A DNA stretch of 64,000 nucleotides from an uncultured Rhodospirillales bacterium (GCA_964568585.1 CAZMQI010000003.1:32975-96974), one strand, 5' to 3'. Positions 40,577 through 64,000 are shown, counted from the stretch's first letter. Notes: generated from the letters alone by a model not told the origin. Made by a program: numbers and translations.

Positions 40577-40711
40577 GTGATTTTAGCGATTTGTTCATTT
40601 TCAGTTAAGGCTTTGTCTTTACTCTAGATTCTGGCCCTAACCGTTCTATCTCAAGAAGGGCTGGGCAGGGGGCTAATCACATCCTTCTGTTCATTACACC
40701 CCTAATTTAAA

Positions 40712-43700: not shown

Positions 43701-43816
43701 TTGAAGTTGAAAAACGCGCAGCCGCCGAAAAGGCCAAGGAAGCCGAAGCAAATAAAGTTACTAAAAAACGTGATTTTTCGGGTTCAAGTTCGCGTGCATC
43801 CGGCACGCCCCGCTAA
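40712..43816 (+). CDS. DotO/IcmB (TraU)-like T4BSS ATPase
   Basis: 1034 aa (Legionella IcmB is about 1009 aa). Walker A motif AQPGSGKS. Confidence 0.8.
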   Translation: MHRMLGFLDEFFAGILLLFKQPVESFINLETADDDTTLVSNDGSLLSYLKISGARQMIGGEEYNWIIDQATLKLGARFDRPGQAMQFYFYRDPDRIGRTLHKMMTPNRMSAAAIGIDLDDLLKERQRNLSNYLALEEMYLVLWTRPSGLTPNEYKRAQETRKDVKWHAAKNAQMPFAALEPLRLKHKAFVSNISESLFELGIVSNVMEVHDALRAVRASIYPNLDNDKWKACLPGDPIAPRRPRYKRDWSDLLWPPISQQLCPMDAEVLGPSTVRVGDLAWAATDMSLGPSDASPFPQLLNRLIEANMPFRISFMIESGGVTGENFRKLAASLLAFSNGINRQIKDTLNELIALSQSDPVVKLRISYATYAPAGDKKLIETRLANLMQAAESWGYCQVANICGDPLEAVMSSVLGISCSATAPPGVAPLREVVKMLPWQRSCSPFNDGAVILRSPDGRIWPYQMGTALTTTWFDLIFAQPGSGKSVLMNAKNLGCCLSAGMSKLPFIAILDIGPSSSGLISLLKDALPADRRQEVLHFKLLMTPEYAVNPFDTQLGCRYALPDERAYLCELLTLICTPPGQDTPYDGMTQLVGFCVDEMYRWRDDAEANAEARPYLELIEPRVDDAIKKMNLVLPPEPYWWEVVDALYDAGAKHEAMLAQRHAVPTLVDAVTAARRPQIRAFLDETAIGPSAEGVIHAFERMIASAIREFPILAGVTRFDTGTARVASVDLQEVSPQGDASADRQTAIMYMLARHTLIRAWWLNPDSLRNVTPRYRPHHDERLKEIREIPKRLCYDEFHRTANSFAVRAQLIRDVREGRKWGVQIVLASQLLNDFTADMIDLATGIWVCGSTASERAINDLGEKFSLSETARWVVRYRLTGPKPSGSPVLLILSTTEGRYEQHLVNTLGPIELWALSTSAEDVVIRSKLYEKVGATKARRLLATLFPGGTARHEIRRRVVIRTERGELTTNAQQAVMQEMVDELAAYVTREVLDGVLEVEKRAAAEKAKEAEANKVTKKRDFSGSSSRASGTPR

Positions 43817-43864
43817 TATAATATGCTGATGTAATGATTCGAGTAGTTATAACGAGAAGTAGCA

Positions 43865-45085: not shown

Positions 45086-45097
45086 GGAAGTAAGTGT

Positions 45098-45598
45098 ATG
45101 ACCAAATTTCTACGTTCCAAACGCAACCGCGGCCATTTCGTAGTAGTTAGCGATGATGTACTCGTGGCTGATCTGCGTCAGGCAAAGACATCAGGTGTTG
45201 TCCGTTTGAAACTTGCCGATTTGACCTTCGCGCATTTCCATGTACGCAGCGATGATCAGGGATCAAAACTTGGTTTTACCACAGGCCGTGATGATTTTGT
45301 GGTACTTGGTGTATTCAATGATCGCGGCGATGCCGATAATCTGCTGAAAGAAATCCGCAATGAAATGCTGCAGATTGAAAAGTTGCACCGGGTCTTCAGC
45401 CTTCGCACCTTCCTGACCGCGATGTCAGTCATCATCACATTGGTATTCCTTATCTGGTTTTATGGAAAAGCCACGCAGCAAAATCTTCCGCAACTCAATG
45501 AACCACTCGCTCTTGAAGAACCGTTCCGTGAACCAGGTCCTGCAGCTGAACCCGGCAGGCCCATGGATGCGGATAGTAAGTTAACTGCCCCTGAATAA
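45098..45598 (+). CDS. Hypothetical protein with a C-terminal TM segment
   Basis: 166 aa ORF between the dotM-like and dotL-like genes. Confidence 0.35.
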   Translation: MTKFLRSKRNRGHFVVVSDDVLVADLRQAKTSGVVRLKLADLTFAHFHVRSDDQGSKLGFTTGRDDFVVLGVFNDRGDADNLLKEIRNEMLQIEKLHRVFSLRTFLTAMSVIITLVFLIWFYGKATQQNLPQLNEPLALEEPFREPGPAAEPGRPMDADSKLTAPE

Positions 45599-45627
45599 CA
45601 TTTTTGGAAAAGATTGACACATAAGCC

Positions 45628-48108: not shown

Positions 48109-48128
48109 GTTGTTAGCGGAGGATACCA

Positions 48129-48317
48129 GTGATTGATCTAAAAAGTTGGCTGCCTTCTTCACTGGTTGATAGTTTAAAAGGCTTTGCCGTCACTCCTGGA
48201 GGTGACGATAAGAATGTGGACCCAGGCAAGGGTGGATGCTGCTTGGTGATCTTCGGATTTATTGTCCTTATGGTGTCGGGTGGATTGCCATTGTTGCTTG
48301 GCATGATTAAAAAATAA
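48129..48317 (+). CDS. Small hydrophobic protein (62 aa)
   Basis: A single TM segment (CCLVIFGFIVLMVSGGLPLLLGMI) right after dotL. Could be spurious. Confidence 0.3.
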   Translation: MIDLKSWLPSSLVDSLKGFAVTPGGDDKNVDPGKGGCCLVIFGFIVLMVSGGLPLLLGMIKK

Positions 48318-48514
48318 AATTGTGATTGTACAATTCTGCCTTCGCGCCCTACCAAGTTAACCTTTCCTTATCAGAAAATTAAACTTTACTTCATATAATC
48401 TTAAAGGTGTTTTTACTATAATGATGCTTGTAATAGCTTGAATGGTATTAGGTTTTTGAGCGCTATGTTTGAACGCTCTTAACCACAAAAATTTTACCAA
48501 GAGGATTTAAAAGC

Positions 48515-49060
48515 GTGACAAACCAAACAGCTTTTTTTGAACGCAAAACAATCCATAAGCTTTTCTCAGCTGTGTTCGTTCTGTTGGTTTCACTGTTGTT
48601 CATATCAGCTGCACATGCTGATCTTTACTGCGATCCACAAATTAAAGCCAAAGCGCAACAAGACCGCCAAAATGCTATCATGAAAGATATCGCGCGGTTT
48701 GAAGGATCGTATGGTCAACCCAACAGTTTCGATGGTTTATTCTGCGGCGCTCAAATCACGTCTGGCTTTGACAAAATAGGCCAGAATTTGGTGGGCAATC
48801 TCACTAATCAGGTTAACAATCTTATCACCCAGTTATTTCAGCAAGCATGTAAGGCTGCAATCGCGCCCATTCAAAACCTCGCTGCACAAACCTGCGTTCC
48901 TAATTTTGCAAATGTGTATTTTGATACAAGCTTCCTGAACTTTAATTTGAATAAAAATAACTACTGTCCTGGCACGCAGCTTATTCAGGTAACGCCAGTG
49001 ATGGGTGGTTCTACCGGACAGGGTGGCGGTAATTACAGCGTTCCAGATTTATATTGGTGA
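48515..49060 (+). CDS. Hypothetical secreted protein
   Basis: GTG start preceded by AGAGGA, then the signal peptide LFSAVFVLLVSLLFISAAHA. 181 aa. Overlaps the next gene by 7 nt. Confidence 0.45.
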   Translation: MTNQTAFFERKTIHKLFSAVFVLLVSLLFISAAHADLYCDPQIKAKAQQDRQNAIMKDIARFEGSYGQPNSFDGLFCGAQITSGFDKIGQNLVGNLTNQVNNLITQLFQQACKAAIAPIQNLAAQTCVPNFANVYFDTSFLNFNLNKNNYCPGTQLIQVTPVMGGSTGQGGGNYSVPDLYW

Positions 49061-50613
49061 TGAATATGAAACCCTTATCACGTATAAAAACGAACTTAAA
49101 ACCATCTACATGCATCATGGCGCTCGTACTGCTGTTGGCACCCACGCCATCGCATGCCGACATTCCTTCAAGTTTAATTACGGCCATTTTCGGTTCAGGA
49201 TTTATGAATGGCGGCCAGCTTCCCAGCAATGCAGGAACAACCGTTAAAGACCAAGTCATTCCATTGCTTCAACAGCTTGCAATTCTAAATAATGATGCTG
49301 CCGGGGTAAACAATCAAGGTCAGCGTTTGATGACCGAGACGGATATTAAACGTTCAACCTACGAACAACAAGTCGCGTGGGAACGTGAACGCAAACTGCG
49401 TGATGATGAAATCGCCCGCAGCTATCCTGAAATGTCGAACCTTTCCTGTGCTCTTGCGACTGCAAATAAAAGTGTGCCGGCGATTGAAGTAGGGGTCGAT
49501 AACGTTGTAGGCCAAGTGGTCGCCCTGTTATCAAGCTCCATGTACCGCAGTTTGGTATTGGATAGTGAAATTTCAGCCACCAAGAAAGCAAAGATTTGGT
49601 GCGCGCTGGGGGCAACCGGTAAAATCGGTGCATGTAAGACTGAAGCCGATGCTTTGGTAGAGGGATCGGATAGAGGTCGCCACGCTGCTATTACACGCAA
49701 GGTTTCCATTCCATGCGATATGCGAAGTGTTGTACAAGATTTCTCGAAAATGAATAACGATAACTGGGCACCAAGCTCACGCAGCAATAAAGAATGTATT
49801 GCTGCAATTCTTGCAATCGCTAACGAATTCCCTATATCCACATCACTGCAAACCGAAGAAGAAGTGAATAGCTTTTCGGGCAGAAAAAAATGGGATTTAA
49901 AAGTCAACCAGATTGCACAAGCCGCAGCGACCAAAGGTGGCGTATTCCAGCAATTCGCGGATCGCGTATCGGTAGCAAAAACTTCGCAACCTAACTGTGA
50001 TGACGGATTGAAAGGTGGCAGCGAAGATGTTTATTCACTGCTGGAAAGAGTATATCAAAATTTCAGCCGCAGCACCGAAGTAGCACCATTCGGATTGCCA
50101 CCGAACGAATTCTGCCTTAGCAAACGGTTAATACGGCAAGGCAAGCGTTTGTTGATGAACCGTTATGCTCAGAACGAACGCGGTAAAGATAATATGGCCG
50201 CAAAGCTTGATGCGTTGGTTGATATCAGTATCGAAAATTATGGAACATCCAACCAGCTTGCCATTTTCACCAGCGATGCCCCAGTTGCAAATACCTATGG
50301 GCCAATGGATGGCACGCTTGCCGATCGCGGCGTGAAGGGTGCAGAGAATGACCATAACGAGGAGCTGCTCGGTGCCATCCGCCAATTGACCAGCGCTATT
50401 CAAACCATGAACACCGGTGTCTATGCAGGCAAACCGCAGGAAGTGCGTTTAAAGAAGCGTGCCCCTTCCACGAAGCCAGCAGTTGCTGGACAAGCAGCCG
50501 AAATTACCGACGCCCTAAAAGAAATGGGGCTCAAGGTGAGTTCACCTATGGCGCCATCGAATGGAATTTTGGGTCCCTTGACCCAAGAGTTCCCTGTGCT
50601 TCCGCCGCGATAA
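49054..50613 (+). CDS. Hypothetical secreted protein (519 aa)
   Basis: Signal peptide CIMALVLLLAPTPSHA, followed by a long hydrophilic protein. Could be IcmX/TraW-like. Confidence 0.45.
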   Translation: MVMNMKPLSRIKTNLKPSTCIMALVLLLAPTPSHADIPSSLITAIFGSGFMNGGQLPSNAGTTVKDQVIPLLQQLAILNNDAAGVNNQGQRLMTETDIKRSTYEQQVAWERERKLRDDEIARSYPEMSNLSCALATANKSVPAIEVGVDNVVGQVVALLSSSMYRSLVLDSEISATKKAKIWCALGATGKIGACKTEADALVEGSDRGRHAAITRKVSIPCDMRSVVQDFSKMNNDNWAPSSRSNKECIAAILAIANEFPISTSLQTEEEVNSFSGRKKWDLKVNQIAQAAATKGGVFQQFADRVSVAKTSQPNCDDGLKGGSEDVYSLLERVYQNFSRSTEVAPFGLPPNEFCLSKRLIRQGKRLLMNRYAQNERGKDNMAAKLDALVDISIENYGTSNQLAIFTSDAPVANTYGPMDGTLADRGVKGAENDHNEELLGAIRQLTSAIQTMNTGVYAGKPQEVRLKKRAPSTKPAVAGQAAEITDALKEMGLKVSSPMAPSNGILGPLTQEFPVLPPR

Positions 50614-50849
50614 TCCATCACAATATCTGCACATCATTTTGCTTTTCCGGTTACCTTGGTTAAGCAAAAATTACTTTTGCGCGCGCCAATCTGTGCCACA
50701 AACTCATCATATCGATATTGAAATACTCACAGCTATTTCAGGTGTTCCAGCTCGAATCAACGCATGGCGTGATGAAAGTAAATTAAGCCTCTGTTAAGAA
50801 TCTAGGAGCAAATTAGGCTAAATTTATTAAGAATTTTAGGGAGTTTCCT

Positions 50850-51191
50850 ATGCGTATCGATTTTCGCAAGCTTTTAGCAGTTGGAGTATTGGCAGCAATA
50901 TGTGCCATGCCAAGTCATTCCCAAGCTGACACCTATGACCAAGAAGACTTTCAGGGCGCCACCCAAGCCTTTGAGCAAAAAATGAAAGAGCAGGCAGACG
51001 AAAAGATGAAGGACGCCTTCAAGCAAATCAAATGTTACGAAAAACGAATGAATGCCGACGCAGCCAGAAAAAAACAAAAGGAAGCCGGTCAAAAAGGTAC
51101 GCCATTTACACAAGATACATGGCCTGATTTTGAAAGCGCAAAAGGCATGACCGACAAATTGGGCAGCGATTTGTTCGATAAATGCGAATAA
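50850..51191 (+). CDS. Hypothetical small secreted protein
   Basis: Signal peptide LLAVGVLAAICAMPSHSQA, then charged, Lys-rich sequence. Confidence 0.45.
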   Translation: MRIDFRKLLAVGVLAAICAMPSHSQADTYDQEDFQGATQAFEQKMKEQADEKMKDAFKQIKCYEKRMNADAARKKQKEAGQKGTPFTQDTWPDFESAKGMTDKLGSDLFDKCE

Positions 51192-51197
51192 TTTGAT

Positions 51198-51467
51198 TTG
51201 AATGGTGTTGGGAGTACAAGCATGAAAAAAATAAATTATCTACTATTGGCGGCGGGATTTACATTCTTATTCGCGCTGGAAAGACCAATCATCCTTCACG
51301 CTGCACTTCCCCCAATGGAGGCGGAACAAGAAGAAGAAAAAGAGAAAAAGCTTGTCGAACAGAAAAAAGCTGGAAAGACCGATAAACAAAAAGGTCAAGG
51401 CAAGCAAAATAAATCATCAAAAGACCCTGAGAAGTGTAATTCTTCTTGGGATAATCTAAAATGTTAG
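51198..51467 (+). CDS. Hypothetical small secreted Lys/Glu-rich protein
   Basis: Signal peptide, then a charged low-complexity tail (EQEEEKEKKLVEQKKAGKTDKQKGQGKQNK). Confidence 0.35.
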   Translation: MNGVGSTSMKKINYLLLAAGFTFLFALERPIILHAALPPMEAEQEEEKEKKLVEQKKAGKTDKQKGQGKQNKSSKDPEKCNSSWDNLKC

Positions 51468-53146
51468 GGGGACACATGAAAAACTTTCAATCCTTTTTTG
51501 CGATGGTAGCAAAAGGCACAGCGGTTGCAGGTGTAGTGTTCACGGTTGCGCTGTTCTCCGTACACGGTAATGCGGCGTTTGATACTCAAATGCTTACGGC
51601 TCCCAAGGGACTTGGTGGGCCGCCTGCATCCGATATCGGGCTTTTGAAAATTCAAGAAGGGCTGCAAACGATAACCACAGCCATCAACAATCTTGAAAAG
51701 AGAATGGAACGGCTTTCCGGTACACAAACTTCCCAAACAGCGCAAAGTGACCAGTTGAGAATGCGTTTAGCTGAAGCACAGGCTCGCGATAATCGGGCTG
51801 GCGAAATGCAATCCGCAAACGTCGCGATTGCGATGGCAAACCAAGCACCGCGTGTTGCTGCAGCATATGAATTAATGGGTGCAACTGGCTGGTCGGAAGC
51901 AGATACCAACGCAACGGGTATGTGGGTACGACAAGTATCAGAAATGGCGGAAAACATAAATCCGCCTAATAAAGATATGACCAAGAATGAATATATGGAA
52001 AAGATTGTTGCCGCAGGTTGCGAGTCTGGTTCGATGACCAAGACCGAAGCAGAACGTGCAGGTTGTTCATCTAGCGGAAAATATGCTGGCACATTCTGCA
52101 ATCCAGCAAAATGGTCAACAGTAAAAGGCATTGAAACAAAACCTGGCAGCCCAGGCGCAAATGCGATGATGGCTACGGTGGCGTGCACATCATCCCGTTT
52201 TGCCGAAGTGCTTCCAACGGGTGACTTGCTGCGTAATCCGTCACGCACCAGCGAGCTGAATAAAAGAGGCTTAAAGCAATTGGCCAAATATTATGAAATC
52301 GACCCTGCTTATCTTGAACAGGCCGCATATGGTAACTTCGTTGCGGGTGTGACTAGAGCGACTAATAACTTTGCAGCGATAGGTTGCATCGCAAATGGTT
52401 CTGCTTCCCGCACATCGCGCCCTGACGGTGATTGGGGTGCTGATTATAAGGCATGCCGCAATATCCTTAAGGAAGAAGGCAAGGCAGGACCTCAAGAAGG
52501 CGAAATGACACGCGACGATGTTTTGAAATGCCGTGAAATGGTCGCCCGCAGAACCATGAAGGATGCACCAAAGCAACCAGGGGTGAATGGTGGCAATATG
52601 TTGCAATTGGGCCTTTCTGCAAATCAGGCTAGCCGCGGTGAGCGCGACCAGCTCGGTTCATCGCAAGGCAATTCAAGTTGCCAAGGCGATGCCGCGATGC
52701 AGGAAAGCATCAGTCAGGTTGCGCTATACATGCAAAGTCCGATTTTCTTGGCACGTGTTAAGGATGGCTCGTTCATGAAAACGCGTCTGGCATGGCGTGA
52801 AGAGCTGAAGGGCATCAACAAGCAATTGGAAGTCCAATACGCAGAAATGATTAGGGAATATAAACTTGGTGCCGCCTATTCGTTGTATGCGTTCAATGAA
52901 CCAGAACCAGGCCCAACAACACTTGCCGAATTATTCGCAGATGTTGGTGTGGATATGAAAACGCTTATCCCGACCAAGGGCGATATGCGCTTTTCGGGCA
53001 TGACTGCGTTGCTGTCACCTGAACAGATTGATTCAGTGACCGGCGCTGCGGTTCAGCTGGCATTACGCGATGGCTTACCAGTTCCCGGTAAGTCGGTGGA
53101 TGCTGCGCCGCTTGCCACACAAACACTGCTTGTCTCGGCTAAATAA
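51461..53146 (+). CDS. Hypothetical secreted protein (561 aa)
   Basis: Signal or TM segment GTAVAGVVFTVALFSVHGNA, then a long hydrophilic protein with several Cys. Confidence 0.45.
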   Translation: MLGGHMKNFQSFFAMVAKGTAVAGVVFTVALFSVHGNAAFDTQMLTAPKGLGGPPASDIGLLKIQEGLQTITTAINNLEKRMERLSGTQTSQTAQSDQLRMRLAEAQARDNRAGEMQSANVAIAMANQAPRVAAAYELMGATGWSEADTNATGMWVRQVSEMAENINPPNKDMTKNEYMEKIVAAGCESGSMTKTEAERAGCSSSGKYAGTFCNPAKWSTVKGIETKPGSPGANAMMATVACTSSRFAEVLPTGDLLRNPSRTSELNKRGLKQLAKYYEIDPAYLEQAAYGNFVAGVTRATNNFAAIGCIANGSASRTSRPDGDWGADYKACRNILKEEGKAGPQEGEMTRDDVLKCREMVARRTMKDAPKQPGVNGGNMLQLGLSANQASRGERDQLGSSQGNSSCQGDAAMQESISQVALYMQSPIFLARVKDGSFMKTRLAWREELKGINKQLEVQYAEMIREYKLGAAYSLYAFNEPEPGPTTLAELFADVGVDMKTLIPTKGDMRFSGMTALLSPEQIDSVTGAAVQLALRDGLPVPGKSVDAAPLATQTLLVSAK

Positions 53147-53394: not shown

Positions 53395-54282
53395 ATGAGT
53401 GACGCAGCCGCTTTAAAAACCACTGGCTCTGCCGCCCCCAGCAATAATGGGCCAAGCGGTAATCGCATGAAGTTGCATGCGCGCGTCGCCGTGCTCAAAC
53501 ATGTGGTAACGCCGCTGTTACAGGCGATGGCGGAAGTTAAGAACGCTAATAAAGAAAACCCGTCAACGCCAACCCCCGAAGAAGAAGCGCAAACGCTTGG
53601 CACTCTGGTTGATGGTGCGATGGCGCTTTCCAAAGCGACAACCGAAAATTTCAACGAAGCAGGCGGCGCGATTGAAGATAGCGTGCGCTGGATGATTGTG
53701 CATGCATCAACCCAAACCGTGGCAGCGCGCTACCGCGCAACAGGCACCATCATTGCTGCCGAAGAAGCGGTGAACCTTGCCAAGACTACATTTGAAATCA
53801 AAGACAAATTCCAAAGTCAGAGCGTTGCACAGGGCGAGTCAGTTCCCAATACCTTGGGAATATTTCGTGCCAAGATGCTTGAAGCACTGGTTCCAGTTGT
53901 TAACGCTGTCGCCCAATATTCGTTTGGCCGTGCCGAACATTTACTTTTGGCGCAAGTCGCCGAACGTTTATTAAAGACCGCAGACCAGGTTACCCGAAGC
54001 CTTGCGCCTGCTGGATGTACCCCAAAAGACTGGCGTTTATTGTGTTGGAGCGTGCTTTTGGCTGCGGGTTACCTGTATTCCGATTGCCACTTTGCAGAAG
54101 CCGATCGTTTGCTTTATATGGATAAGGAAGAACGCGACGTTTATTTTAAAGAGCACGATAATATGCCACCGCTACATTTTGTATGGCAATCCTTTGACCA
54201 ACGCATGTCCATGCTAGCCACCCTTATCACTTATCTTGATGTGCCGGAATCCGCACGTCTTGATGAACAGCAGATGGAGTAA
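53395..54282 (+). CDS. Hypothetical cytoplasmic protein
   Basis: 295 aa, no signal peptide. Precedes the lytic transglycosylase gene with a 3-nt spacer. Confidence 0.4.
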   Translation: MSDAAALKTTGSAAPSNNGPSGNRMKLHARVAVLKHVVTPLLQAMAEVKNANKENPSTPTPEEEAQTLGTLVDGAMALSKATTENFNEAGGAIEDSVRWMIVHASTQTVAARYRATGTIIAAEEAVNLAKTTFEIKDKFQSQSVAQGESVPNTLGIFRAKMLEALVPVVNAVAQYSFGRAEHLLLAQVAERLLKTADQVTRSLAPAGCTPKDWRLLCWSVLLAAGYLYSDCHFAEADRLLYMDKEERDVYFKEHDNMPPLHFVWQSFDQRMSMLATLITYLDVPESARLDEQQME

Positions 54283-54285
54283 GCG

Positions 54286-54795
54286 ATGGCGATGTCAGCA
54301 CTTCAGGTTTTTGCTTCCTGCCTCATGCTTTCGGCGCAGACCTATGCGGTGCCACCGCAAGTGATGGTCGGCATCCTGCATGTCGAAGGCGGAAAAGTCG
54401 GCCAAGAAGTTGGCCCGAATGTGAACGGCACCTACGATTTGGGACCGATGCAGGTCAATACCTTGTGGATACCGCAACTCGCTAAATACTGGCAGGTTGA
54501 TAACAAGACCGCGCATAAATGGGTGCGTGATAATTCCTGCGTGAACCTGCATGTGTCGGCGTGGATTTTGCGTCAGAAGCTTGATCAGGCTGGCGGAAAT
54601 TTATTCAACGGCATCGCACGCTATCATTCTGCGACTCCAGCATTTGGCCATAATTATGCGTATAAAGTTATCAAAGCTATGGATAGGCAGGGTTTGATTG
54701 ACTATTCTAACAGCGGCAACGGATCGGGTAATTCCTATGCGGGTGATACCGGAAACCGCAAAGGGAAAACCATTCGCGTTGCGGATGTGAACTAG
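54286..54795 (+). CDS. T4SS-associated lytic transglycosylase (SLT domain; VirB1/IagB/TrbN-like)
   Basis: Signal peptide. Catalytic Glu context GILHVEGG and motif GPMQVN. Confidence 0.7.
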   Translation: MAMSALQVFASCLMLSAQTYAVPPQVMVGILHVEGGKVGQEVGPNVNGTYDLGPMQVNTLWIPQLAKYWQVDNKTAHKWVRDNSCVNLHVSAWILRQKLDQAGGNLFNGIARYHSATPAFGHNYAYKVIKAMDRQGLIDYSNSGNGSGNSYAGDTGNRKGKTIRVADVN

Positions 54796-54831
54796 TCGTT
54801 TTTTAAATCTCATCGTTTTGTTGGGCCCTTG

Positions 54832-55887
54832 ATGAAACTTGCATATGTAAAATCTGTTATGGCTGCGCTTATGGTAAGCGCGCTTATTGCTGTCCCTGCT
54901 TTTGCTGCTCAAAAAAAGGAAGCCGCTCATAAAGAGGCTGCCAAAGAAACAGTTGTTCCCTTGGCGGCTTCACCATCTGCAAAAGAGCCTGCGACAGAAC
55001 CATCACCTGCCACCGCTGTTCCAGCAGATGCTGCTGCGATACCTGCCGCGCCAGTAAATGTTCCCGATACATCCAATATCTTGTTTATGCAGAATATGCG
55101 TAAGATTGGGGCGACCATTTATTATCTTGGCGAGAATTTAGGTCTGCATGGCTGGTTTGTGGTCAAGGATGGACAAGTACAAATCATCTACACAACGCCG
55201 GATCAAAAAGCGTTACTGGTCGGCGCGTTGCTATCTCCTGAAGGCGCGAATGTATCGCAGCAACAAGTGATGGTGCTGGCCAATAACAATCCTGAAATTC
55301 AAAAAATCTTAAGGGGTTCTGCTGCCGTTACAGGCCAGCCACCAAAACCTGCGCCAGCTGTAGCAAATGATGTGCTGCATGCCGCAACGGGTGTTGCGCC
55401 AGCCCCAGCAAAAGCACCGCAAGAGTCGCCCAGTGAGAAATTCTTTGGTGAGCTTCTCAAGGCTACCAATGTAACATTCGGCAAAGAAGGCGCGCCGCAA
55501 TTGCTGATGATTATGGATGTGAATTGCCCGCATTGTCATAACGCATGGAAGAATATGCAGCCATTGGTTGATGGCGGAAAATTGCGCGTGACGATGATTC
55601 CTATCAAAGCACTTGGCCCTCAATCGGAGTTGGAAGGCGCGAATTGGCTTTCTAAAAAAGATCCATACGAAGCATGGAAGAAGCGCATTGCAGGTGACGA
55701 AACCGTTTTCAGAAGCGGCCAACAGGATACTGAAAAAGAAAAAGGTGTCTTTGCAAATACAGTGCTAGTCAAACATTGGGGTGTAATGCAAACGCCATAC
55801 ATTCTATATCGCGGTAAAAACGACAAAATCCGGTTGATTGAAGGTGAGCCAAAAAGCATCGACGAAATCATGTCGGATATAAAGTAA
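54832..55887 (+). CDS. DsbC/DsbG-family thiol:disulfide isomerase (IncI TrbB-like)
   Basis: Signal peptide, Ala/Pro-rich linker, thioredoxin-fold motif CPHC. Confidence 0.7.
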   Translation: MKLAYVKSVMAALMVSALIAVPAFAAQKKEAAHKEAAKETVVPLAASPSAKEPATEPSPATAVPADAAAIPAAPVNVPDTSNILFMQNMRKIGATIYYLGENLGLHGWFVVKDGQVQIIYTTPDQKALLVGALLSPEGANVSQQQVMVLANNNPEIQKILRGSAAVTGQPPKPAPAVANDVLHAATGVAPAPAKAPQESPSEKFFGELLKATNVTFGKEGAPQLLMIMDVNCPHCHNAWKNMQPLVDGGKLRVTMIPIKALGPQSELEGANWLSKKDPYEAWKKRIAGDETVFRSGQQDTEKEKGVFANTVLVKHWGVMQTPYILYRGKNDKIRLIEGEPKSIDEIMSDIK

Positions 55888-55914
55888 GAGTGAACACGTA
55901 ACCAAGGTGACGCT

Positions 55915-56199
55915 ATGGCTAATATGTTAGACAAGTTTAAGGAAAAGATTTCCGGCACACCGCCAAAGAAAAGCGGTGTCACGGTCTATACATCTGGCCC
56001 GCTTGCAAGACCTGTTGAGCGTCAAGCAGCACCGGAATCAACATTACCACATGCCGCCGCCATTTATGGCGCTGCTGCCGCCATATTTGCCGTGTTGACC
56101 GTTTATTATCTGATTAAGGGACATTGGTTCACCGGTACGGTGATGATTCTTCCAACCTTGTGCCTGGGTGGATTTGCATATCACCACATGAAAAACTAA
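55915..56199 (+). CDS. Small membrane protein (94 aa)
   Basis: Two hydrophobic helices at the C-terminus. Confidence 0.3.
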   Translation: MANMLDKFKEKISGTPPKKSGVTVYTSGPLARPVERQAAPESTLPHAAAIYGAAAAIFAVLTVYYLIKGHWFTGTVMILPTLCLGGFAYHHMKN

Positions 56200-56402: not shown

Positions 56403-56981
56403 ATGGCGATACATCGCGCATCTTTTTACAAAGTCACTTGTTTAGAAAATGCGGGCCGCTTTTTACGCGTTTGCATCTTGCTTGGGTTGATAACTGTTTC
56501 CACCATTACCCTGACAGGGTGCGCGGATGATGATATTGAAAATCCGGCCATGCTTCCTGTGTATGCAACCCCTGTTGACCCCGATCCGGTTGGTCTGCGC
56601 TTAGCACAAGCAGCGGAGCGCGCGACCCAGGCACAAAACAAAATGGCGCAAATTGAATCATTCCGCACGCCGTTGCCAACGCAAGATGGCCTTGGCACAT
56701 CACTTCCCGGCACCGCGCAAATCACCAGCGTGACATGGACTGGCCCCATCGATCAGATTACCCGCACGCTTTCTGAAATGGCTGGTTTGAGCTTTAAGGT
56801 AACTGGAAAAGAACCGCCTTTGCCAATGATAGTAAGTGTCAATGCGCACCAGGAGCCCATAAGCAAAATTCTACAGGATATTGGTGCGCAGGCTGGGCGG
56901 CGGGCTGACTTGATTATCGACCCCACGAATAGAACGCTTGATCTGCATTATGCACCGACCGATGGACTCAATTATTACTAA
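56403..56981 (+). CDS. DotD (TraH)-like outer-membrane lipoprotein
   Basis: Lipobox LTGC, a disordered linker, and a C-terminal domain of about 90 aa (secretin-N0-like position). First gene of a dotD-dotC-dotB order. Confidence 0.55.
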   Translation: MAIHRASFYKVTCLENAGRFLRVCILLGLITVSTITLTGCADDDIENPAMLPVYATPVDPDPVGLRLAQAAERATQAQNKMAQIESFRTPLPTQDGLGTSLPGTAQITSVTWTGPIDQITRTLSEMAGLSFKVTGKEPPLPMIVSVNAHQEPISKILQDIGAQAGRRADLIIDPTNRTLDLHYAPTDGLNYY

Positions 56982-57015: not shown

Positions 57016-57864
57016 ATGGCCGCGTTGCTTGCCTGCGCGTTGATGATTGGAATAAGTCACGCTGCATTCGCTGACAATGAAGAAAACCGTGATGCGCCAG
57101 CGCCGCCACCGCCCAATTTCAATCAGATGCAATCGTGGCTGAAGATTAAAGATGATGATGCGGAAGAACACGAAGAACAAGCCAAGAAAAAAATCGGTGT
57201 ACAAATCCGTGTTGATGCGTTGAAAGAAGCTGCGCTGTCGTATGGCGCACGCGGCGGTCTTGCATGGCGCACATTCCAAATTCAACGTCGCCTAGCGGAG
57301 AACGAAGGCAATATCACCAAGATTTTCAATTTCGGTAATTTGCTGATTGCCGCGCCATCTGGATTGATGATTGAACCACCCGTGGTGACCGAAGCACAAA
57401 AAGCGGTCATCGTCGCCAATGGCGGACAAAATGCTGCCGTGGCTGACCGTGTCTATCGTATCAATCGCAATGCCCGCATTGTGACCGCAGCTAAAAACTG
57501 GCGTGCTTATCTGGAGCGTGATTGGGGCAGGGTGGAACCGCCCCCTAACGCTTTGGTTCCCAAGAACGAAGAAGAGCTCGCCCATTGGCGTCGCCAGCTG
57601 GCTTTGGGCTGGCAAGAAGGAATTCGTCAGGCAGATGACATATTTCAGGCCGATTTGGACCGTTTAAACACAGATTATTTAGGAATGGTAAGGTATCGTG
57701 AGTTGTTGGCTCAGGGCATCATTACACCGCCCTATGCCACGCAAGAAGATAGAGGCGTAACCGGTGGTGGCAGCGAAATGCGTATTGGCGATCGCGGCCT
57801 CGTCATTACCGGACCGTCGCAGTTTAACCCGAAGAGTGAACGATGGATCACGGCTCCGCGCTAG
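57016..57864 (+). CDS. DotC (TraI)-like lipoprotein
   Basis: Lipobox LLAC at the Met 57016 start (the ORF is open from 56938). About 280 aa. Lies between the dotD-like and dotB genes. Confidence 0.55.
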   Translation: MAALLACALMIGISHAAFADNEENRDAPAPPPPNFNQMQSWLKIKDDDAEEHEEQAKKKIGVQIRVDALKEAALSYGARGGLAWRTFQIQRRLAENEGNITKIFNFGNLLIAAPSGLMIEPPVVTEAQKAVIVANGGQNAAVADRVYRINRNARIVTAAKNWRAYLERDWGRVEPPPNALVPKNEEELAHWRRQLALGWQEGIRQADDIFQADLDRLNTDYLGMVRYRELLAQGIITPPYATQEDRGVTGGGSEMRIGDRGLVITGPSQFNPKSERWITAPR

Positions 57865-59045
57865 CATCTGGTCAAGGCCTTGTCGTCGGTTCTGCCGAAA
57901 TGGATTTTTGGCCGGATGAGCCACCGCGTATTCGCGTCGAGCTGGTTGATGATCTGATCCTGTGGTGCGTGATGCAGCGCGCCAGCGATATCACCATTCA
58001 ATCCGACCGCCCGACCTATATCGAAGTTGACGGAAAATTATTTCCTGTAACGCGTCGTTCCATCGACAGCGCCGACATCGCGGCCTTCGTCACCAAAATG
58101 TATGGGCTTGATGCCATGGCCGCATTGACGGCGGGTAAAGATCTGGATTTATCCTACGAAATCCGCGTCGATCGAAATACACGCTTCCGTTTCCGTGTGA
58201 ACATCACCGCGATTTTAAGTAAAGGACGCGATGGCGTTTCCATTACCATGCGCGTGCTTCCGAATGTCCCGCCGCGTATGAGCGATCTTGGAATTGAAAA
58301 GGAATTGATTGATGCGTGGGCACCGCGCCAGGGTCTTGTGTTCGTAACGGGACCAACGGGTTCTGGTAAGACAACGCTGTTAGCCGCTGGTACACGCATG
58401 CTCATCGAACGTCCTGAAGGCGCAGGAAAGATGCTCACTTATGAAGCGCCGATTGAATATGTGTATGACCAGATTGTCGGCCCGCACAGTGTAATCGCGC
58501 AAAGTGAAATCCCGCGCAATCTGCCAAGCTTTGCTGCGGGAGTTCGTAACTCGTTGCGCCGCAAACCGAACATCATTCTGGTGGGTGAAGCCCGTGACCG
58601 CGAAACGGTTTCTGCCGCGATTGAAGCGGGGCAGACGGGTCACTTGGTATATGCCACAACCCATACCATCGGTGTGGCGGCAACGGTTCGCCGTCTTGTG
58701 TCTGTATTTGATTCAGGCGAACGTTTGGAGCGCGCCTATGCATTGATCGAAACAACGCGTTTAATCGTCACGCAGGCACTTGTACCACGTGTGGGCGGTG
58801 GACGTATCGCGCTTCGTGAATATCTGATTTTCGATGAACATGTGCGCGAGCATCTGTTGGAAACACCACTTGAAAACTGGACATCCGAAACGCAGAACAT
58901 GCTCGAGAAGTATGGCCGCACGATGCAGAAATCGGCCAACGAGATTTATAGCCAAGGCTTGATTGATCGCCGCCATTACCTATTATTGTCGCGTGGCTTT
59001 GGCGATGAAAATGTTGATGAAAAACCTGCTGGCCACGCTCAATAG
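57843..59045 (+). CDS. DotB (TraJ)-like secretion ATPase of the PilT/VirB11 superfamily
   Basis: Walker A VFVTGPTGSGKTT and Asp/His boxes. 400 aa. Confidence 0.85.
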   Translation: MDHGSALASGQGLVVGSAEMDFWPDEPPRIRVELVDDLILWCVMQRASDITIQSDRPTYIEVDGKLFPVTRRSIDSADIAAFVTKMYGLDAMAALTAGKDLDLSYEIRVDRNTRFRFRVNITAILSKGRDGVSITMRVLPNVPPRMSDLGIEKELIDAWAPRQGLVFVTGPTGSGKTTLLAAGTRMLIERPEGAGKMLTYEAPIEYVYDQIVGPHSVIAQSEIPRNLPSFAAGVRNSLRRKPNIILVGEARDRETVSAAIEAGQTGHLVYATTHTIGVAATVRRLVSVFDSGERLERAYALIETTRLIVTQALVPRVGGGRIALREYLIFDEHVREHLLETPLENWTSETQNMLEKYGRTMQKSANEIYSQGLIDRRHYLLLSRGFGDENVDEKPAGHAQ

Positions 59046-59206: not shown

Positions 59207-59614
59207 TTGGATACACACTGGCGAAATAGTATGAAGCCCGCGCGCTTTTTTATGCTTGATGCACGCGCTGCATGGCCAGTGCTTGTCATGCTGTTGCACA
59301 TGCGTTTTTATACGATGATTTTTGCTGTGTTCGTGATGGTTGTATTCTATTTTCTGGAGCAACGCGGTCTGAGTTTTTTTGCAGCGCTTCGTGCATTCAG
59401 AGTTTGGATTGTTACCAAGAAGCGACCCAATTATCGCCCCAGTGACATGACGCGCATGGTCGACTTCGCATTCGAACCATTGCCACAAAGGTTTATTAAC
59501 GAGAAGCCCGCTCCAAAGACCGGATTTGCACCGGGCGGAAAAACTGTGAACGGCGAATCAGTTGCACCCAGCCACAATAAGGCAACGGTGCCTCCTGCCA
59601 AAAAATCTCAATAG
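59207..59614 (+). CDS. IcmT/TraK-like small membrane protein
   Basis: N-terminal motif HWRNSMKPARFFMLDARAAWPVLVMLLH and two TM helices. Sits after dotB, matching the R64 traH-I-J-K order. Confidence 0.45.
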   Translation: MDTHWRNSMKPARFFMLDARAAWPVLVMLLHMRFYTMIFAVFVMVVFYFLEQRGLSFFAALRAFRVWIVTKKRPNYRPSDMTRMVDFAFEPLPQRFINEKPAPKTGFAPGGKTVNGESVAPSHNKATVPPAKKSQ

Positions 59615-59764: not shown

Positions 59765-61120
59765 ATGCGTAAGCCAATTGAGTACCCTCACGATAGTCGT
59801 GCGTCGATTTTTGGTGCAAGAGGGGATTTTTTAAAGGCAGGAATGAACATGAAAAGAAGTCATATGGGACTATTTTATAAGGCTATTACCATCGTTTCTT
59901 TTTTATCGATTGCGTTGATAGGCCACGACTTGCAAGCCGTCACGCTAGGGACATCATCAGCAAAGCAAATCGGTTTTAGAGTTGCAAATTCAGGCGCCAC
60001 CAATGGCGCCACACAAAATCAAGGCATCATTGATCAGCCACCTGTCGTTATTCAGGGTCGTTCAGGAAACGCCCAGCAGCAATCCCAACAACAAGCCCCG
60101 CAAAATCAGAATACTGCGCGCGCGCCAAATGGTTACGCGCAAGCTGGCGCTCCATCCATGGCGATGGAACCGGTTGTTGAAGGGTTTGGTGACAAGGTTC
60201 CGCTCACCGTTGCCATCCAGCAAATTCTTCCACAAGGTTATGGCTACACATTAGGCGACGGCGTTGATGCAGGTCAGCTTGTTAGCTGGCGCGGTGGTCG
60301 TTCGTGGTCAGCTGTGTTGCAGGACATGCTTGGTCAGGCCGGTCTTGCTTATTCGGTAAATGGACGTTCTGTTGCGATTAATGGCAATGGTGCATCCCCA
60401 ACCATCGTAACTGGTACGCCTTCGATGCGTGTTCAGCCGCAACCTGTTATCCAGCCTGTTCAATCAGCCCCGGTTGTTGTTCAACAGCCAGTGATGATGG
60501 ATCCAGTGCCTGTCATGCAACCACAACCACAAATGGTCATGCAGCAACCTCAAATGCAACCAATGATGCAGGTGCAGCCGCAGATGCAGCCAGTGATGAT
60601 GCAGCCGCAGCCGCAAATGGTTATGCAGCAACCCCAGATGCAACCAATGGTGCAGTCACAGCCAATGATGATGCAGCCGCAAGGTCAGCAACAAGTAGTG
60701 ATGATGCAGCAGCAGCCACAAATGATGATGGTCGATCCACTAGGTCAACCCATGATGATGCAGCAGATGGCGCCGGCACAACAAGTTGTGCCAGCTTCAA
60801 CGGCACCTCAGCCATTGCAAATCGAAAATCCATTAGTGTTCCAATCGCAAACATGGACCGCTGCTCCTGGTCAAACGCTTCGCACATTGCTTCAAAACTG
60901 GTGTGCACGCGTTGGTGTCGAACTGAACTGGACTGCGGAATTCGATTACCCAATTATGGCGACGATGAATATGACGGGCACGTTTGAAGAAGCGGTTCGC
61001 GTATTGCTCATAGGATTTGATGGCGCAAAACCAACGCCACGCGGACGTTTGCACTACAACCCGGCAGCCGGACAATCGATTTTGATTGTTGAAGCTGACG
61101 GCAATCATTATGGGGACTAA
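59765..61120 (+). CDS. PilL/TcpQ-like periplasmic protein with a Gln/Pro/Met-rich repeat spacer
   Basis: Signal peptide. Low-complexity (QPQMQPMMQ)n region. C-terminal region of about 100 aa resembling the TcpQ C-terminal domain, directly upstream of a secretin lipoprotein. Confidence 0.45.
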   Translation: MRKPIEYPHDSRASIFGARGDFLKAGMNMKRSHMGLFYKAITIVSFLSIALIGHDLQAVTLGTSSAKQIGFRVANSGATNGATQNQGIIDQPPVVIQGRSGNAQQQSQQQAPQNQNTARAPNGYAQAGAPSMAMEPVVEGFGDKVPLTVAIQQILPQGYGYTLGDGVDAGQLVSWRGGRSWSAVLQDMLGQAGLAYSVNGRSVAINGNGASPTIVTGTPSMRVQPQPVIQPVQSAPVVVQQPVMMDPVPVMQPQPQMVMQQPQMQPMMQVQPQMQPVMMQPQPQMVMQQPQMQPMVQSQPMMMQPQGQQQVVMMQQQPQMMMVDPLGQPMMMQQMAPAQQVVPASTAPQPLQIENPLVFQSQTWTAAPGQTLRTLLQNWCARVGVELNWTAEFDYPIMATMNMTGTFEEAVRVLLIGFDGAKPTPRGRLHYNPAAGQSILIVEADGNHYGD

Positions 61121-61123
61121 ACT

Positions 61124-62797
61124 ATGGCGTTGTTGACGTTGTTGCCATCACAGTTTCGCGAAAAAGCGGTTTCGTTTTTCGGCGTGTTCATCTTAGCTGC
61201 TGCACTTTGTGGCTGCCAATCCGAAGACTACCGCAATACCATTAGTGAACGTCAACAAGTAGCCGAACAGCGCGTTGATGAAGCACGCATTCCAGCATCT
61301 GCCAAACGGTTTAACCCATTGACAGTGACCGATAGCATTTGGACTGGTGGTAAAGCCATACGCATGCGTCATGGCATTCCATTGCCGTCACGCGTTGAAA
61401 GCAATCGCTCGGTTGCATTGATTTCGCCTTCACCAATGTCCGTTCGCGCTATTGCAAACGCTATTTCACAACAGACGGGTATTCCAGTTCGTTTTGGAAA
61501 AGATGTGGATGATGGCAGTGGTGAAGACGATGACGCGCCGAGCAGCTCATCTTCCAGCTCTTCGACCGCCAAAAAGCCAGCCCCATCCGCCAAAGTGGTG
61601 GCAAAAACCCCGCAAGTCGGTATGCGTGTTGCCTATGAAGGCCCGCTCTCCGGACTACTTGATCGTGTTGCAAGCCATTTTGGTGTAAACTGGAAATATG
61701 ATGGCAGCGCACTTTCCGTTACCCGTTATGAAACGCGCACCTTTGTTATGGATGCATTGCCAGGTACCCAAAAAGTTAAAGACGGTATGAAAGAGCAGAC
61801 CGATAATAATGCGTCTGCTTCGGGTAATACACAGGTTACCAGCGTAAGCCAGCAAGCTGGCGAACAAACATCCAGCATGGAAGTTGATTTCAAGTTCTGG
61901 GATGAAATTGGCAAAACACTTGAAACTATTTTAGGTGGCGTTGGAAGCTATTCGATGTCTCCGTCATCCGGCACAATTACGGTTATGACGACGCCTGATG
62001 TCATGCGCGGTGTTTCCGATTTCATCAATCAGGAAAATGATCGTCTTGGTCGTCAGGTTGCCATCAACGTGGAAGTGTACACAGTTGATATGAATGAAGG
62101 TGAAGACTTTAATATGAGGTTTGATACAGCGTTGCGTCGTCTCACCAACATTGGCGGTAACTTCACATCGGCTGGCGGACCATCATCCACCAGCACGGGG
62201 TTAGGACAGCTCGCTGTTTCTGTGCTCAATCCTGAAACCATTGGTAGTGTTACCAGCATCTTTAACCTGCTTTCAAACGTAGGTAAGACGGCGCGCGTTG
62301 CACAGTTTCCGTTGACCACGCTGAACAATCGTCCTGTGTCACGCCGCATTGGCCGCGATATTGCGTACCTTGCTTCGGTACAAACCAATACCAGCCAGAC
62401 ATTCCAAAACACCACGCTAACGCCAGGTATTATTAAGGATGGTTTCTCCATCCAAGTAACGCCACGCTTGCTGGGTGAAGGACGTATTCTCTTGCAATAC
62501 TCCTTGTCCTTAATTGATTTGGTCGGTGCTCCGAGAACATTTACGTCGGGTGATAACCAGATTCAGCTTCCTGAAACCGCGACACGCTTCTTTGTACAGC
62601 AATCGATGTTGCGTAGTGGATCGACCCTTGTGCTTGCCGGATTTGACCAAGATCAGGCTTCACAAAGTTCACAGGGTGTAGGCAATCCTTATAACTATCT
62701 ACTTGGTGGGGGCGTAACCAATTCACGCACACGTCAAATCCTGTTTATTGCAATGACGCCGCAGGAGATTACCCTACCGAGGACGGAGAATGAGTAA
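61124..62797 (+). CDS. Secretin-family outer-membrane lipoprotein (PilN/TcpC-like)
   Basis: Lipobox LCGC. Ser-rich linker. C-terminal secretin-like block STLVLAGFDQ...NPYNYLLGGGVTNSRTRQILFIAMTPQEI. Confidence 0.55.
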   Translation: MALLTLLPSQFREKAVSFFGVFILAAALCGCQSEDYRNTISERQQVAEQRVDEARIPASAKRFNPLTVTDSIWTGGKAIRMRHGIPLPSRVESNRSVALISPSPMSVRAIANAISQQTGIPVRFGKDVDDGSGEDDDAPSSSSSSSSTAKKPAPSAKVVAKTPQVGMRVAYEGPLSGLLDRVASHFGVNWKYDGSALSVTRYETRTFVMDALPGTQKVKDGMKEQTDNNASASGNTQVTSVSQQAGEQTSSMEVDFKFWDEIGKTLETILGGVGSYSMSPSSGTITVMTTPDVMRGVSDFINQENDRLGRQVAINVEVYTVDMNEGEDFNMRFDTALRRLTNIGGNFTSAGGPSSTSTGLGQLAVSVLNPETIGSVTSIFNLLSNVGKTARVAQFPLTTLNNRPVSRRIGRDIAYLASVQTNTSQTFQNTTLTPGIIKDGFSIQVTPRLLGEGRILLQYSLSLIDLVGAPRTFTSGDNQIQLPETATRFFVQQSMLRSGSTLVLAGFDQDQASQSSQGVGNPYNYLLGGGVTNSRTRQILFIAMTPQEITLPRTENE

Positions 62798-64000
62798 TGG
62801 TTTCTGGCGTTGTCAAAGTTGGCAGGCAAATTTATGCTGTCGGCCTGTTATGGCAGCCGTCGCCTAGTGGGCGTATTGCTCAGGCGGCACGCGAAGCAGC
62901 GGCGCAACCTGGCCAACAATCCGACTACTATTGCGTACGTGCTGCAAGTAAATCAGTTGCAATCCCTCAATATGGCCTAGCGCAAAGTACGCAAGGTCAC
63001 AAAGCAGGCATGGCTACGCTTGCGGCATCGCTTGCCAATGCACAGCCGGGTTCTTGGGCGGGTGCGTTTCGTTTACGCGAAGGCACATGGGTTGTTGTTG
63101 TCAGAGATGATTTAATTGCGCCAGATGGCGACGTTTTATTTGATAATGATGAAGCCGCACGTGACCGCTTACTGCAGGAAGTAAGCCTTGGCGGTGTACA
63201 ACGTATTTATGCCCCAGATGGCTGGGCCGTACCGGGTTCTGATCCGACGCCATTGCCGTTATTATTACAAGACAAAGCCGAATGCCGTCTGCAACCTGTG
63301 CGCTTGCCGATGCGCCTCATTATTTACGGGGCTGCAGCAGGCGCGGTAGTGTTACTGGTTATCTTTCTTGCCTTACAATGGCAGGCCGAACAAGAACGCA
63401 TCGAGCAAGAGCAGACCGCTGCACAGCTTAAAGCGCAACAGGAAGCTATTAAAAATGGCCCTGTCAGCAAGATGATGAACAAGTGGGAATGGCCACCTGC
63501 AGACCAATGCTATGAACGTAAATGGGAAAAGGCCGCGACTTCAAGAGAAGTAGTAACTGCCTGTCAGGGTATGATGGCCAAGGTTCAGGCTTCCCAGCTC
63601 GGTTGGAAGCGCAGCACCGCAGTGTGTAGCGGCGATAACAAGCTGACGATTACCTGGTTGCGTAATAAAGACATTAATGGTGTCGTCCCTCCTGAATCAA
63701 TTGTTAAAGAAGATTTAAGCATGGCAACGCAGAATAGCCGTGGTGCGACATGGGTTGCGCGTGGCGTTGAGCCATTGATGCGGGAAATAGACTTATCGGC
63801 ACTTATGATTCATGATAAGTGGCCAGTGTCAGTCATGCGTCTCCCTGATGATCCGCCGATGGTTCAGCCACCGGCAGATATGAAGGATCCACCACCGCCG
63901 CCACCGCCGCCATGGCGCAAGCGCGGGATTAAGTATTCTGGTAAGGTTCCGCCGTGGGAAATGTGGCGCTATTTTGATGGGGTAACGGGTTTGATATTGG
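62797..64000 (+). CDS. Hypothetical protein, possibly a PilO-like pilus biogenesis component; 3' partial at the window edge
   Basis: Start codon overlaps the secretin stop (ATGA-type overlap). One TM helix (LIIYGAAAGAVVLLVIFLAL) and a poly-Pro stretch (PPPPPPPP). No stop before position 64000. Confidence 0.35.
   Translation, partial: MVSGVVKVGRQIYAVGLLWQPSPSGRIAQAAREAAAQPGQQSDYYCVRAASKSVAIPQYGLAQSTQGHKAGMATLAASLANAQPGSWAGAFRLREGTWVVVVRDDLIAPDGDVLFDNDEAARDRLLQEVSLGGVQRIYAPDGWAVPGSDPTPLPLLLQDKAECRLQPVRLPMRLIIYGAAAGAVVLLVIFLALQWQAEQERIEQEQTAAQLKAQQEAIKNGPVSKMMNKWEWPPADQCYERKWEKAATSREVVTACQGMMAKVQASQLGWKRSTAVCSGDNKLTITWLRNKDINGVVPPESIVKEDLSMATQNSRGATWVARGVEPLMREIDLSALMIHDKWPVSVMRLPDDPPMVQPPADMKDPPPPPPPPWRKRGIKYSGKVPPWEMWRYFDGVTGLIL

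Follow-up and report, generated by a model that had tools for sequence, protein, structure and literature searches.

A type IVb pilus operon directly downstream of a chromosomal type IVB secretion locus in uncultured Alphaproteobacteria

Introduction

We know of no secretin in a core Dot/Icm system. In a stretch of 64,000 nucleotides (nt) from an uncultured Rhodospirillales bacterium (GCA_964568585.1 CAZMQI010000003.1:32975-96974; this whole stretch is called the window), a secretin gene and its two neighbours at positions 59,765 to 64,000 stand directly behind genes of a Dot/Icm-like type IVB secretion system (T4BSS), which raises the question of whether they supply the T4BSS with an outlet or build a type IVb pilus (T4bP). 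We found that the three genes are the first three of a complete T4bP operon, not a spare secretin channel, and that dotD-dotC-dotB-icmT immediately precede the operon on the same strand, a fusion that is conserved across a large clade. We consider it probable that a complete T4bP operon is here fused to a relaxase-less chromosomal T4BSS and that both machines cooperate in target contact and delivery. The pairing of a T4bP with a T4BSS-type machine is known from IncI plasmids; here a broad uncultured clade carries it stably on the chromosome. Our literature search, whose coverage was incomplete, found no description of this fusion in Alphaproteobacteria.

The window ends in the first genes of a type IVb pilus operon

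The three genes at the end of the window are as follows.

59843..61120, + strand: pilL; signal peptide, P/Q/M-rich repeat linker and C-terminal TcpQ/BfpG-like domain; presumed secretin partner
61124..62797, + strand: pilN; PilN/BfpB-type lipoprotein secretin, type IVb pilus outer-membrane pore; lipobox ALCG/C
62797..64000, + strand: pilO; PilO/BfpC-like pilus biogenesis protein, bitopic in the inner membrane; truncated at the window edge after 401 of 423 codons

An earlier note on this DNA had described a protein with a TcpQ-like C-terminal domain (59765-61120), a lipoprotein with a secretin-like C-terminus starting 3 nt later, and a third gene overlapping the secretin stop, and had compared them with the TcpQ/PilL-PilN/TcpC-PilO module of type IVb pili, attached to a T4BSS. 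Each of these points was borne out, the domains by Pfam and NCBIfam matches, and DotD, DotC/TraI, DotB and IcmT/TraK are encoded upstream. The secretin (PF00263) and TcpQ hidden Markov models, which the note had proposed as checks, both scored above their gathering scores.

The pilN open reading frame (ORF; 61124-62797) encodes 557 amino acids (aa). Pfam Secretin reached 41.2 bits in it (gathering score 27.5) and Secretin_N_2 33.4 bits (gathering score 23.4), and the NCBIfam PilN model TIGR02520 matched over model positions 3-511 with an E value of 4.9e-78. Residues 63-552 aligned with the secretin BfpB of enteropathogenic Escherichia coli (EPEC), whose structure has been solved (9u5s_A; E 2.7e-66). 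In the plasmid database, BfpB was 29% identical over 96% of the length and IncI PilN about 30% identical over 67%; because identities reach only these values, PilN is, judged by its sequence, a divergent member of the PilN/BfpB branch. The lipobox cysteine C31 (...FILAAALCG/C31) is invariant in 24 homologues, the fit of the lipobox being assessed by reading the sequence without a predictor. An AlphaFold2 model built with 24 homologues placed the long β-strands of the secretin barrel at aa 388-549. When this model was searched with Foldseek, 9u5s_A came first (E 1.7e-29) and all 42 matches at E<=1e-3 were secretins, so the secretin fold anticipated for 61124-62797 was recovered. No TcpC structure came up as a significant direct match.

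The first ORF, 59765-61120 on the + strand (451 aa), agrees in its coordinates with the earlier note. The ORF as such exists, but the start of PilL is probably at 59843/59849, because it is preceded by AGGA at 6 nt, the protein then opens with a signal peptide (MKRSHMGLFYKAITIVSFLSIALIGHDLQA), and gene callers give 423 aa on identical contigs. Pfam TcpQ scored 45.4 bits (cut-off 27, E 8.4e-12) at aa 362-415 of the 451-aa ORF. The PilL C-terminus also matched chain R of 9u5s, which we take to be the BfpG partner of BfpB (phmmer E 0.004), and more weakly the N0-like domain of Xanthomonas VirB7. The signal peptide is a plain one, with no lipobox cysteine in PilL. The stop codon TAA occupies 61118-61120, and the ATG of pilN follows 3 nt further on at 61124. 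Between the N-terminal region and the TcpQ domain lies a linker of about 130 aa composed almost entirely of P, Q, M and V (PQPQMVMQQPQMQPM...; window 60400-60800, PilL aa ~215-345), part of which is encoded by a degenerate 27-nt tandem repeat at 60539-60655. The linker may vary in length, since PilL ranges from 404 to 423 aa among close relatives. A duplicated domain in PilL was considered and rejected, as BLASTP of the N-terminal region against the C-terminal TcpQ domain found no similarity.

The ATG of pilO at 62797 overlaps the pilN stop codon TAA (62795-62797) within TAATG. Pfam PAP_PilO reached 60.8 bits (gathering score 26.7, E 1.5e-16), the N-terminal domain matched BfpC (3vhj) and the related pilus biogenesis protein 4bz0, and a transmembrane segment spans aa 170-198. 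Two low-complexity stretches were seen in these proteins: an acidic stretch with an eight-serine run in PilN (aa ~128-163, window 61505-61610, pLDDT <50), and an eight-proline run in PilO that is encoded by a perfect 9-nt repeat (window 63892-63912). Both look like disordered spacers.

The exact PilN sequence was also found in public data, in two Logan assemblies and on a 111,283-bp NCBI contig. On a contig of identical sequence (L002), the genes past the window edge encode the complete PilO of 423 aa, a PilP-like protein of 325 aa, a T2SSE ATPase of 687 aa and a T2SSF platform protein of 361 aa, followed by a prepilin start in which MQTTIAKNETPKQEIMTRPAKEAG is joined across the cleavage site to FNLIEAAIVLGIVGLIV; as in type IVb pilins, the leader is long, position -1 is G and position +5 is E. 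This prepilin gene (L002 9476-9598) begins with MQTT, and its leader MQTTIAKNETPKQEIMTRPAKEAG ends in AKEAG and precedes FNLIEAAIVLG. The ATPase and the prepilin (G/FNLIE) that the earlier note had placed beyond the window edge are thus present, together with a platform protein. The genes from pilL through pilR adjoin or overlap, and the operon order is pilL, pilN, pilO, pilP-like, pilQ ATPase, pilR platform and type IVb prepilin.

A relative with 84% identical PilN (L003, GCA_021732145.1) extends the cluster further. It encodes a PAP_PilO protein, a T2SSE ATPase of 679 aa and a T2SSF platform of 361 aa, and after PilR two tandem pilins that match Pfam Bundlin (E 4.8e-5 and 8.4e-4). Next come a membrane protein of 176 aa, a PilV-like minor pilin of 459 aa and an Flp pilin gene. 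The PilV-like protein (L003 19116-20495) carries an N_methyl motif and a C-terminal Peptidase_S74 (endosialidase-chaperone) domain (2.3e-16). In phage tailspikes and endosialidases, Peptidase_S74 serves as an intramolecular chaperone that cleaves itself. Here a coiled coil follows it, which would be an unusual tip-adhesin design in comparison with the shufflon-encoded variants of IncI plasmids; neither shufflon nor recombinase was found in the L003 pil cluster. Several relatives carry two or three type IVb pilin paralogues in tandem after pilR (L003 17254-18433, L023 16704-18000, L142 19276-21197), compared with the single pilS of IncI plasmids. The Flp/Fap pilin gene (L003 21542-21695) is the start of a Tad locus, about 1 kb past the pil cluster.

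The linkage of pilus and T4BSS genes is conserved

A scan with the PilN alignment, with one genome per species, gave 50 loci, all from metagenome-assembled genomes (MAGs), of which 45 carried enough upstream sequence to be informative. Most are labelled Alphaproteobacteria, and several Micavibrio or 'Bdellovibrionales', under which the NCBI taxonomy puts Micavibrio. No cultured organism was among the 120 best PilN or DotB homologues. Using tblastn with the window proteins, we found that 35 of the 45 informative species-level loci have IcmT/DotB immediately ahead of PilL, down to 41% PilN identity. The conserved order is a 295-aa protein (p295), transglycosylase, DsbG, a 94-aa protein (p94), DotD, DotC, DotB, IcmT, PilL, PilN, PilO, PilP, PilQ and PilR, and two further loci that had been selected through DotB instead of PilN show the same gene order. 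At one locus (L023), a small GcrA-like protein and DotI-DotI-DotH come after the pil cluster and two pilins, so that the pil genes lie within the T4BSS locus.

We also compared pairwise-distance matrices. DotB and DotC correlated with PilN, PilO, PilQ and PilR at r 0.76-0.92, as strongly as proteins within a module (DotB-DotC 0.83, PilN-PilQ 0.83); the Mantel p was 5e-4, a kind of value that clade structure inflates. By these distances, the T4BSS and pilus proteins are judged to have co-diverged across a large uncultured alphaproteobacterial clade. A metagenome scan with the DotB alignment, intended to test the linkage in the opposite direction, from T4BSS to pilus, returned only generic PilT-like ATPases of 28-41% identity, because its pattern was the Walker A motif, and was replaced by look-ups of single DotB homologues.

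The locus is a long-standing chromosomal feature

From position 1 to about 31.2 kb, the window consists entirely of housekeeping genes (IMPDH, RsmB, RpoN, LptA/B, KdsD, PanC, bc1 complex, FTHFS and aconitase). The GC content is flat across the boundary between these and the T4BSS, and the two tRNA genes are 14 kb away, with no tRNA-side junction seen. The left junction is the same in two species with PilN 61-64% identical (contigs of 0.63 and 1.97 Mb) and reads cytochrome c1, cytochrome b, Rieske protein, (FTHFS), aconitase, a 152-154-aa protein, DotI, DotI, DotH and DotG. It follows that the locus has long been part of the chromosome and was inherited vertically, rather than being a mobile element acquired recently. 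In a more distant relative the housekeeping flank differs, but the same small protein precedes DotI.

No Pfam match to Relaxase, TrwC or MobA was obtained in the locus proteins scanned (window and L003; 50850-51191 and ORFs of <90 aa fell outside the scan), and no integrase domain was found in the scanned proteins of the window and L003. Two proteins of the locus, of 519 and 561 aa (p519 and p561), begin with apparent signal peptides, which argue against relaxases and for exported proteins. A blastn search of 59765-64000 against plasmids gave no match, because the locus is too divergent for DNA comparison.

Comparison with known pilus and secretion systems

The nearest known parallel is the IncI (R64) thin pilus, encoded next to the I-type (MPF_I, Dot/Icm-like) Tra/Trb system, although the locus is not a member of the IncI module. 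R64 likewise has a T4bP of PilL-PilN-PilO-PilP-ATPase-platform-pilin-PilV composition beside a T4BSS-type machine with homologues of DotD/C/B/IcmT (TraH/I/J/K), and its PilN is a lipoprotein secretin as well. The IncI thin pilus serves cell-cell contact for transfer in liquid. In the IncI reference plasmid pB15, typed MPF_I, we found the order pilL-M-N-O-P-ATPase-platform-pilin-lytic transglycosylase-A24-PilV. Unlike the IncI modules, the present locus is chromosomal and vertically inherited, with no relaxase found in it and no oriT, and its pil operon lies downstream of icmT/traK, whereas that of IncI lies upstream of traE. It has no pilM between pilL and pilN, no pilI/J/K, and neither a pilU peptidase nor a pilT lytic transglycosylase in the operon, a lytic transglycosylase being encoded upstream of dotD instead. 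Shufflon and rci are absent, the PilV-like protein ending in Peptidase_S74; PilP has about 325 aa against about 150 aa; and there are two pilin genes (L003). On the Bosea plasmid pANAM02, which has the nearest plasmid homologue of the DotO-like ATPase, no pil cluster is annotated in the 43-kb stretch examined.

The bundle-forming pilus (BFP) of EPEC provides the closest protein relatives. BFP is encoded on a virulence plasmid that is not known to carry a type IV secretion system (T4SS), and has the retraction ATPase BfpF and its own peptidase BfpP. BfpB is the best match of PilN in both sequence and fold (29% identity, 96% coverage), the small partner gene just upstream of it matches the PilL C-terminus, the L003 pilins match Pfam Bundlin, and PilO matches BfpC. 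PilL, at 423 aa, far exceeds the EPEC partner in length; it has an additional N-terminal region as well as the P/Q/M-rich linker, and is not a lipoprotein. In their solved complex, BfpB and BfpG are present at 17:17, and BfpG sits on the lipoprotein-specific LG region of the secretin (PMC12531336). As in TcpQ-TcpC of the Vibrio cholerae toxin-coregulated pilus (TCP), a TcpQ-domain protein and a lipoprotein secretin are encoded side by side; TCP is not known to be linked to a T4SS. The pili of PAPI-1, ICEclc and SPI-7 (pilL2-N2-O2-P2-Q2-R2-S2-T2-V2-M2) have no pilM between L and N and appear to resemble the order found here; they accompany GI-type (MPF_G) conjugative T4SSs on mobile islands, not a T4BSS.

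Like the Dot/Icm systems of Legionella and Coxiella (pT4SSi), the secretion part is a chromosomal T4BSS with no relaxase found at the locus, and it shares DotB, C, D, G, H, I, L, M, N, O and IcmT with them. Unlike in those systems, effector translocation is here a prediction. To our knowledge, Legionellales Dot/Icm loci carry no type IVb pilus module.

Possible functions of the joined machines

PilN would multimerise into the outer-membrane pore that passes the pilus fibre, and the TcpQ/BfpG-like domain of PilL would bind the secretin at about 1:1 on the periplasmic side, as the BfpB-BfpG structure and the similarity to it suggest. PilO would act as a BfpC-like inner-membrane component joining ATPase and platform. 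If the pilus and the T4BSS cooperate, the pilus would find and hold a target cell, much as mating pairs are held together in liquid by the IncI thin pilus, and the T4BSS would then deliver its cargo. Micavibrio is a genus of epibiotic predators. Protein effectors are a more likely cargo than DNA, because a relaxase is missing at the locus and because relaxase-less pT4SSi have been reported in seven marine Micavibrionales genomes (PMC9418006). More specifically, the locus could encode a grapple-and-inject organ of small-genome uncultured Alphaproteobacteria, some of them labelled Micavibrio, in which a T4bP, inherited together with the relaxase-less T4BSS as part of it and tipped with the PilV-like protein, captures prey or host and the T4BSS injects effectors; we regard this version as possible but doubtful. 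Were it true, the IncI thin pilus with its I-type T4SS would be the mobile cousin of an older chromosomal alliance. If the pilus serves secretion at all, this would show that a T4BSS can need a contact pilus of its own to deliver effectors. It would also point to an attack apparatus of Micavibrio-like predators or symbionts and would connect Dot/Icm-like effector systems with IncI conjugation modules in their evolution.

Three other explanations were weighed against this cooperation. The earlier note had also offered a secretin channel encoded with the T4BSS; as an outlet of the T4BSS itself, PilN and PilL have only their adjacency to icmT in their favour. A complete set of pilus assembly proteins and pilins follows PilN, which is similar over its full length to a pilus secretin, and the T4BSS has its own outer-membrane core of DotC, DotD, DotH and DotG, so that we hold this explanation to be very improbable. 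The T4BSS could instead be the DNA-transfer machine of an old or domesticated integrative element, with the pilus stabilising mating pairs in liquid as in IncI and the relaxase and oriT encoded elsewhere. A T4bP beside an I-type T4SS is indeed the IncI hallmark, a DotL/TrbC-type coupling protein is present, and the DotO/TraU-like ATPase and a TraQ-like protein have homologues on thousands of conjugative plasmids. Yet neither relaxase, integrase, tRNA-side junction nor GC shift was seen in the scanned locus, there is no shufflon or rci, and the aconitase junction shared by species with PilN 61-64% identical indicates vertical inheritance. DotB moreover fits the Dot/Icm model (TIGR02524 DotB, 2.1e-121) far better than the plasmid TraJ model (7.1e-73), and we consider conjugation quite unlikely.

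The remaining alternative is that the T4bP works by itself in adhesion, auto-aggregation or secretion of soluble factors, as TCP does with TcpF, and that the T4BSS is its neighbour by ancestry only. The BFP and TCP relatives work without any T4SS (PMC12531336), which speaks for it. So does the finding that 9 of the 45 informative loci (L043 being ambiguous), and L005 as well, have a solitary pil cluster among housekeeping genes. The exact gene order is nevertheless kept down to 41% PilN identity, the pil cluster lies inside the T4BSS locus in L023, co-divergence between the modules is as tight as within them, and in a neighbour-joining tree of PilN, calculated without support values, the unlinked loci are scattered among the linked ones. 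Because of this scatter, the tree suggests repeated separation from a linked ancestor, and an independent pilus appears unlikely to us.

Several observations weigh against a cooperation of the two machines, or against parts of that reading. The nine unlinked loci, whose pil clusters lie away from the T4BSS, mean that the pilus is physically separable from it (a tenth, L043, is ambiguous), and at least one unlinked genome keeps DotD-C-B on the same contig. The cooperation itself we infer from three things, the conserved fusion, the co-divergence and the IncI precedent. Between icmT and pilL there is a gap of 235 nt with a weak terminator-like hairpin at 59789-59811, so co-transcription across it stays a prediction; a promoter and terminator scan of the gap gave nothing above chance. 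A relaxase could be encoded elsewhere in the genome. The PilU-like or A24 prepilin peptidase that had been expected with the cluster was not found: no Peptidase_A24 match came from the L003 genes after PilR or from the scanned proteins of the window. It may be encoded elsewhere, for example in the neighbouring Flp/Tad locus, whose peptidase might process the type IVb pilins since the pil cluster has none. As to PilN, the PilN model suggested as a check in the earlier note matched with the E value given above but with 262.9 bits, below the equivalog cut-off of 287.65, as for a divergent branch of the family; the AlphaFold2 model is of moderate quality (pLDDT 62.8), and the Foldseek TM-scores are low at 0.35-0.40, as would be expected from a monomer model of a ring protein.

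Other features of the T4BSS locus and exceptional loci

The T4BSS locus upstream of pilL contains the following features.

31361..53146, + strand: main T4BSS block; GcrA-like protein, DotI x2, DotH, DotG, TraQ-like protein, DotN, DotO/TraU-like ATPase, DotM, DotL and exported proteins
40712-43816, + strand: DotO/TraU-like ATPase, 1034 aa; homologues on 3784 mostly conjugative plasmids, weak VirB4 match
45628-48108, + strand: DotL coupling protein; Pfam/NCBIfam match
53395..56199, + strand: accessory block before dotD; 295-aa protein, lytic transglycosylase, DsbG-like isomerase and 94-aa transmembrane protein, in an order kept in about 30 loci
54286-54795, + strand: TrbN/IagB-like lytic transglycosylase; NCBIfam match
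54829-55887, + strand: DsbG-like thiol:disulfide isomerase; NCBIfam match
55915-56199, + strand: 94-aa transmembrane protein
56403..56981, + strand: dotD; T4BSS core lipoprotein; Pfam DotD 1.5e-26, NF033882 1.9e-26
57016..57864, + strand: dotC/traI; outer-membrane core lipoprotein; Pfam T4SS_TraI 3.1e-76
57843..59045, + strand: dotB; PilT-like hexameric T4BSS ATPase; TIGR02524 DotB 2.1e-121, Pfam T2SSE
59207..59614, + strand: icmT/traK family gene directly upstream of pilL; NCBIfam NF038220 3.3e-22, above cut-off

The core proteins DotB, C, D, G, H, I, L, M, N and IcmT were identified by Pfam and NCBIfam matches and DotO through its plasmid homologues; no DotA/TraY was identified among the Pfam/NCBIfam matches of the window. 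The mechanical ORF of dotC starts at 56938, and the gene is called with 282 aa on an identical contig (L001). The pilins carry two cysteines near the C-terminus, and the DsbG-like enzyme might therefore act for the pilus, either instead of the T4BSS or in addition to it.

Directly before the first DotI gene lies a small protein with a weak GcrA-like match (E 4e-4; window 31361-31825). GcrA-like proteins of 135-168 aa were also found before DotI in four relatives (L057 9521-9985, L058 9455-9913, L059 9575-9982 and L023 18135-18641), and this position is kept even where the chromosomal flank differs. The protein may be a dedicated T4BSS regulator. At window 48515-53146, four consecutive proteins of 181, 519, 113 and 561 aa have a signal peptide or an N-terminal transmembrane segment. 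No homologues of the 181-, 519- and 561-aa proteins were found in the Pfam, NCBIfam, PDB or plasmid searches run, p519 and p561 giving no match against PDB and plasmids, and for the 113-aa ORF the N-terminus was inspected only. By their sequences, the four are candidate clade-specific periplasmic or secreted components of the T4BSS, or its substrates.

Three loci depart from the common arrangement. At L143 (3000-8325, JAGWIK010000005.1), four reverse-strand genes lie between dotB and icmT, MotA/MotB follow icmT, and tens of kb separate these genes from the pil cluster of that contig, an example of the linkage breaking. A 7.2-kb contig in a Propionivibrio MAG (L014, NZ_JAPUVO010000045.1) carries an alphaproteobacterial-type DotB-IcmT-PilL-PilN-PilO-PilP-PilQ in a betaproteobacterial bin; because the contig is so short, mis-binning is more likely than transfer. 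On a 2.06-Mb chromosome (L005 8958-15465, CP064970.1), a stand-alone pilL-pilN-pilO-pilP ends at an IS1-family transposase fragment, and the ATPase and platform genes are absent from the cluster, which is probably a decaying copy.

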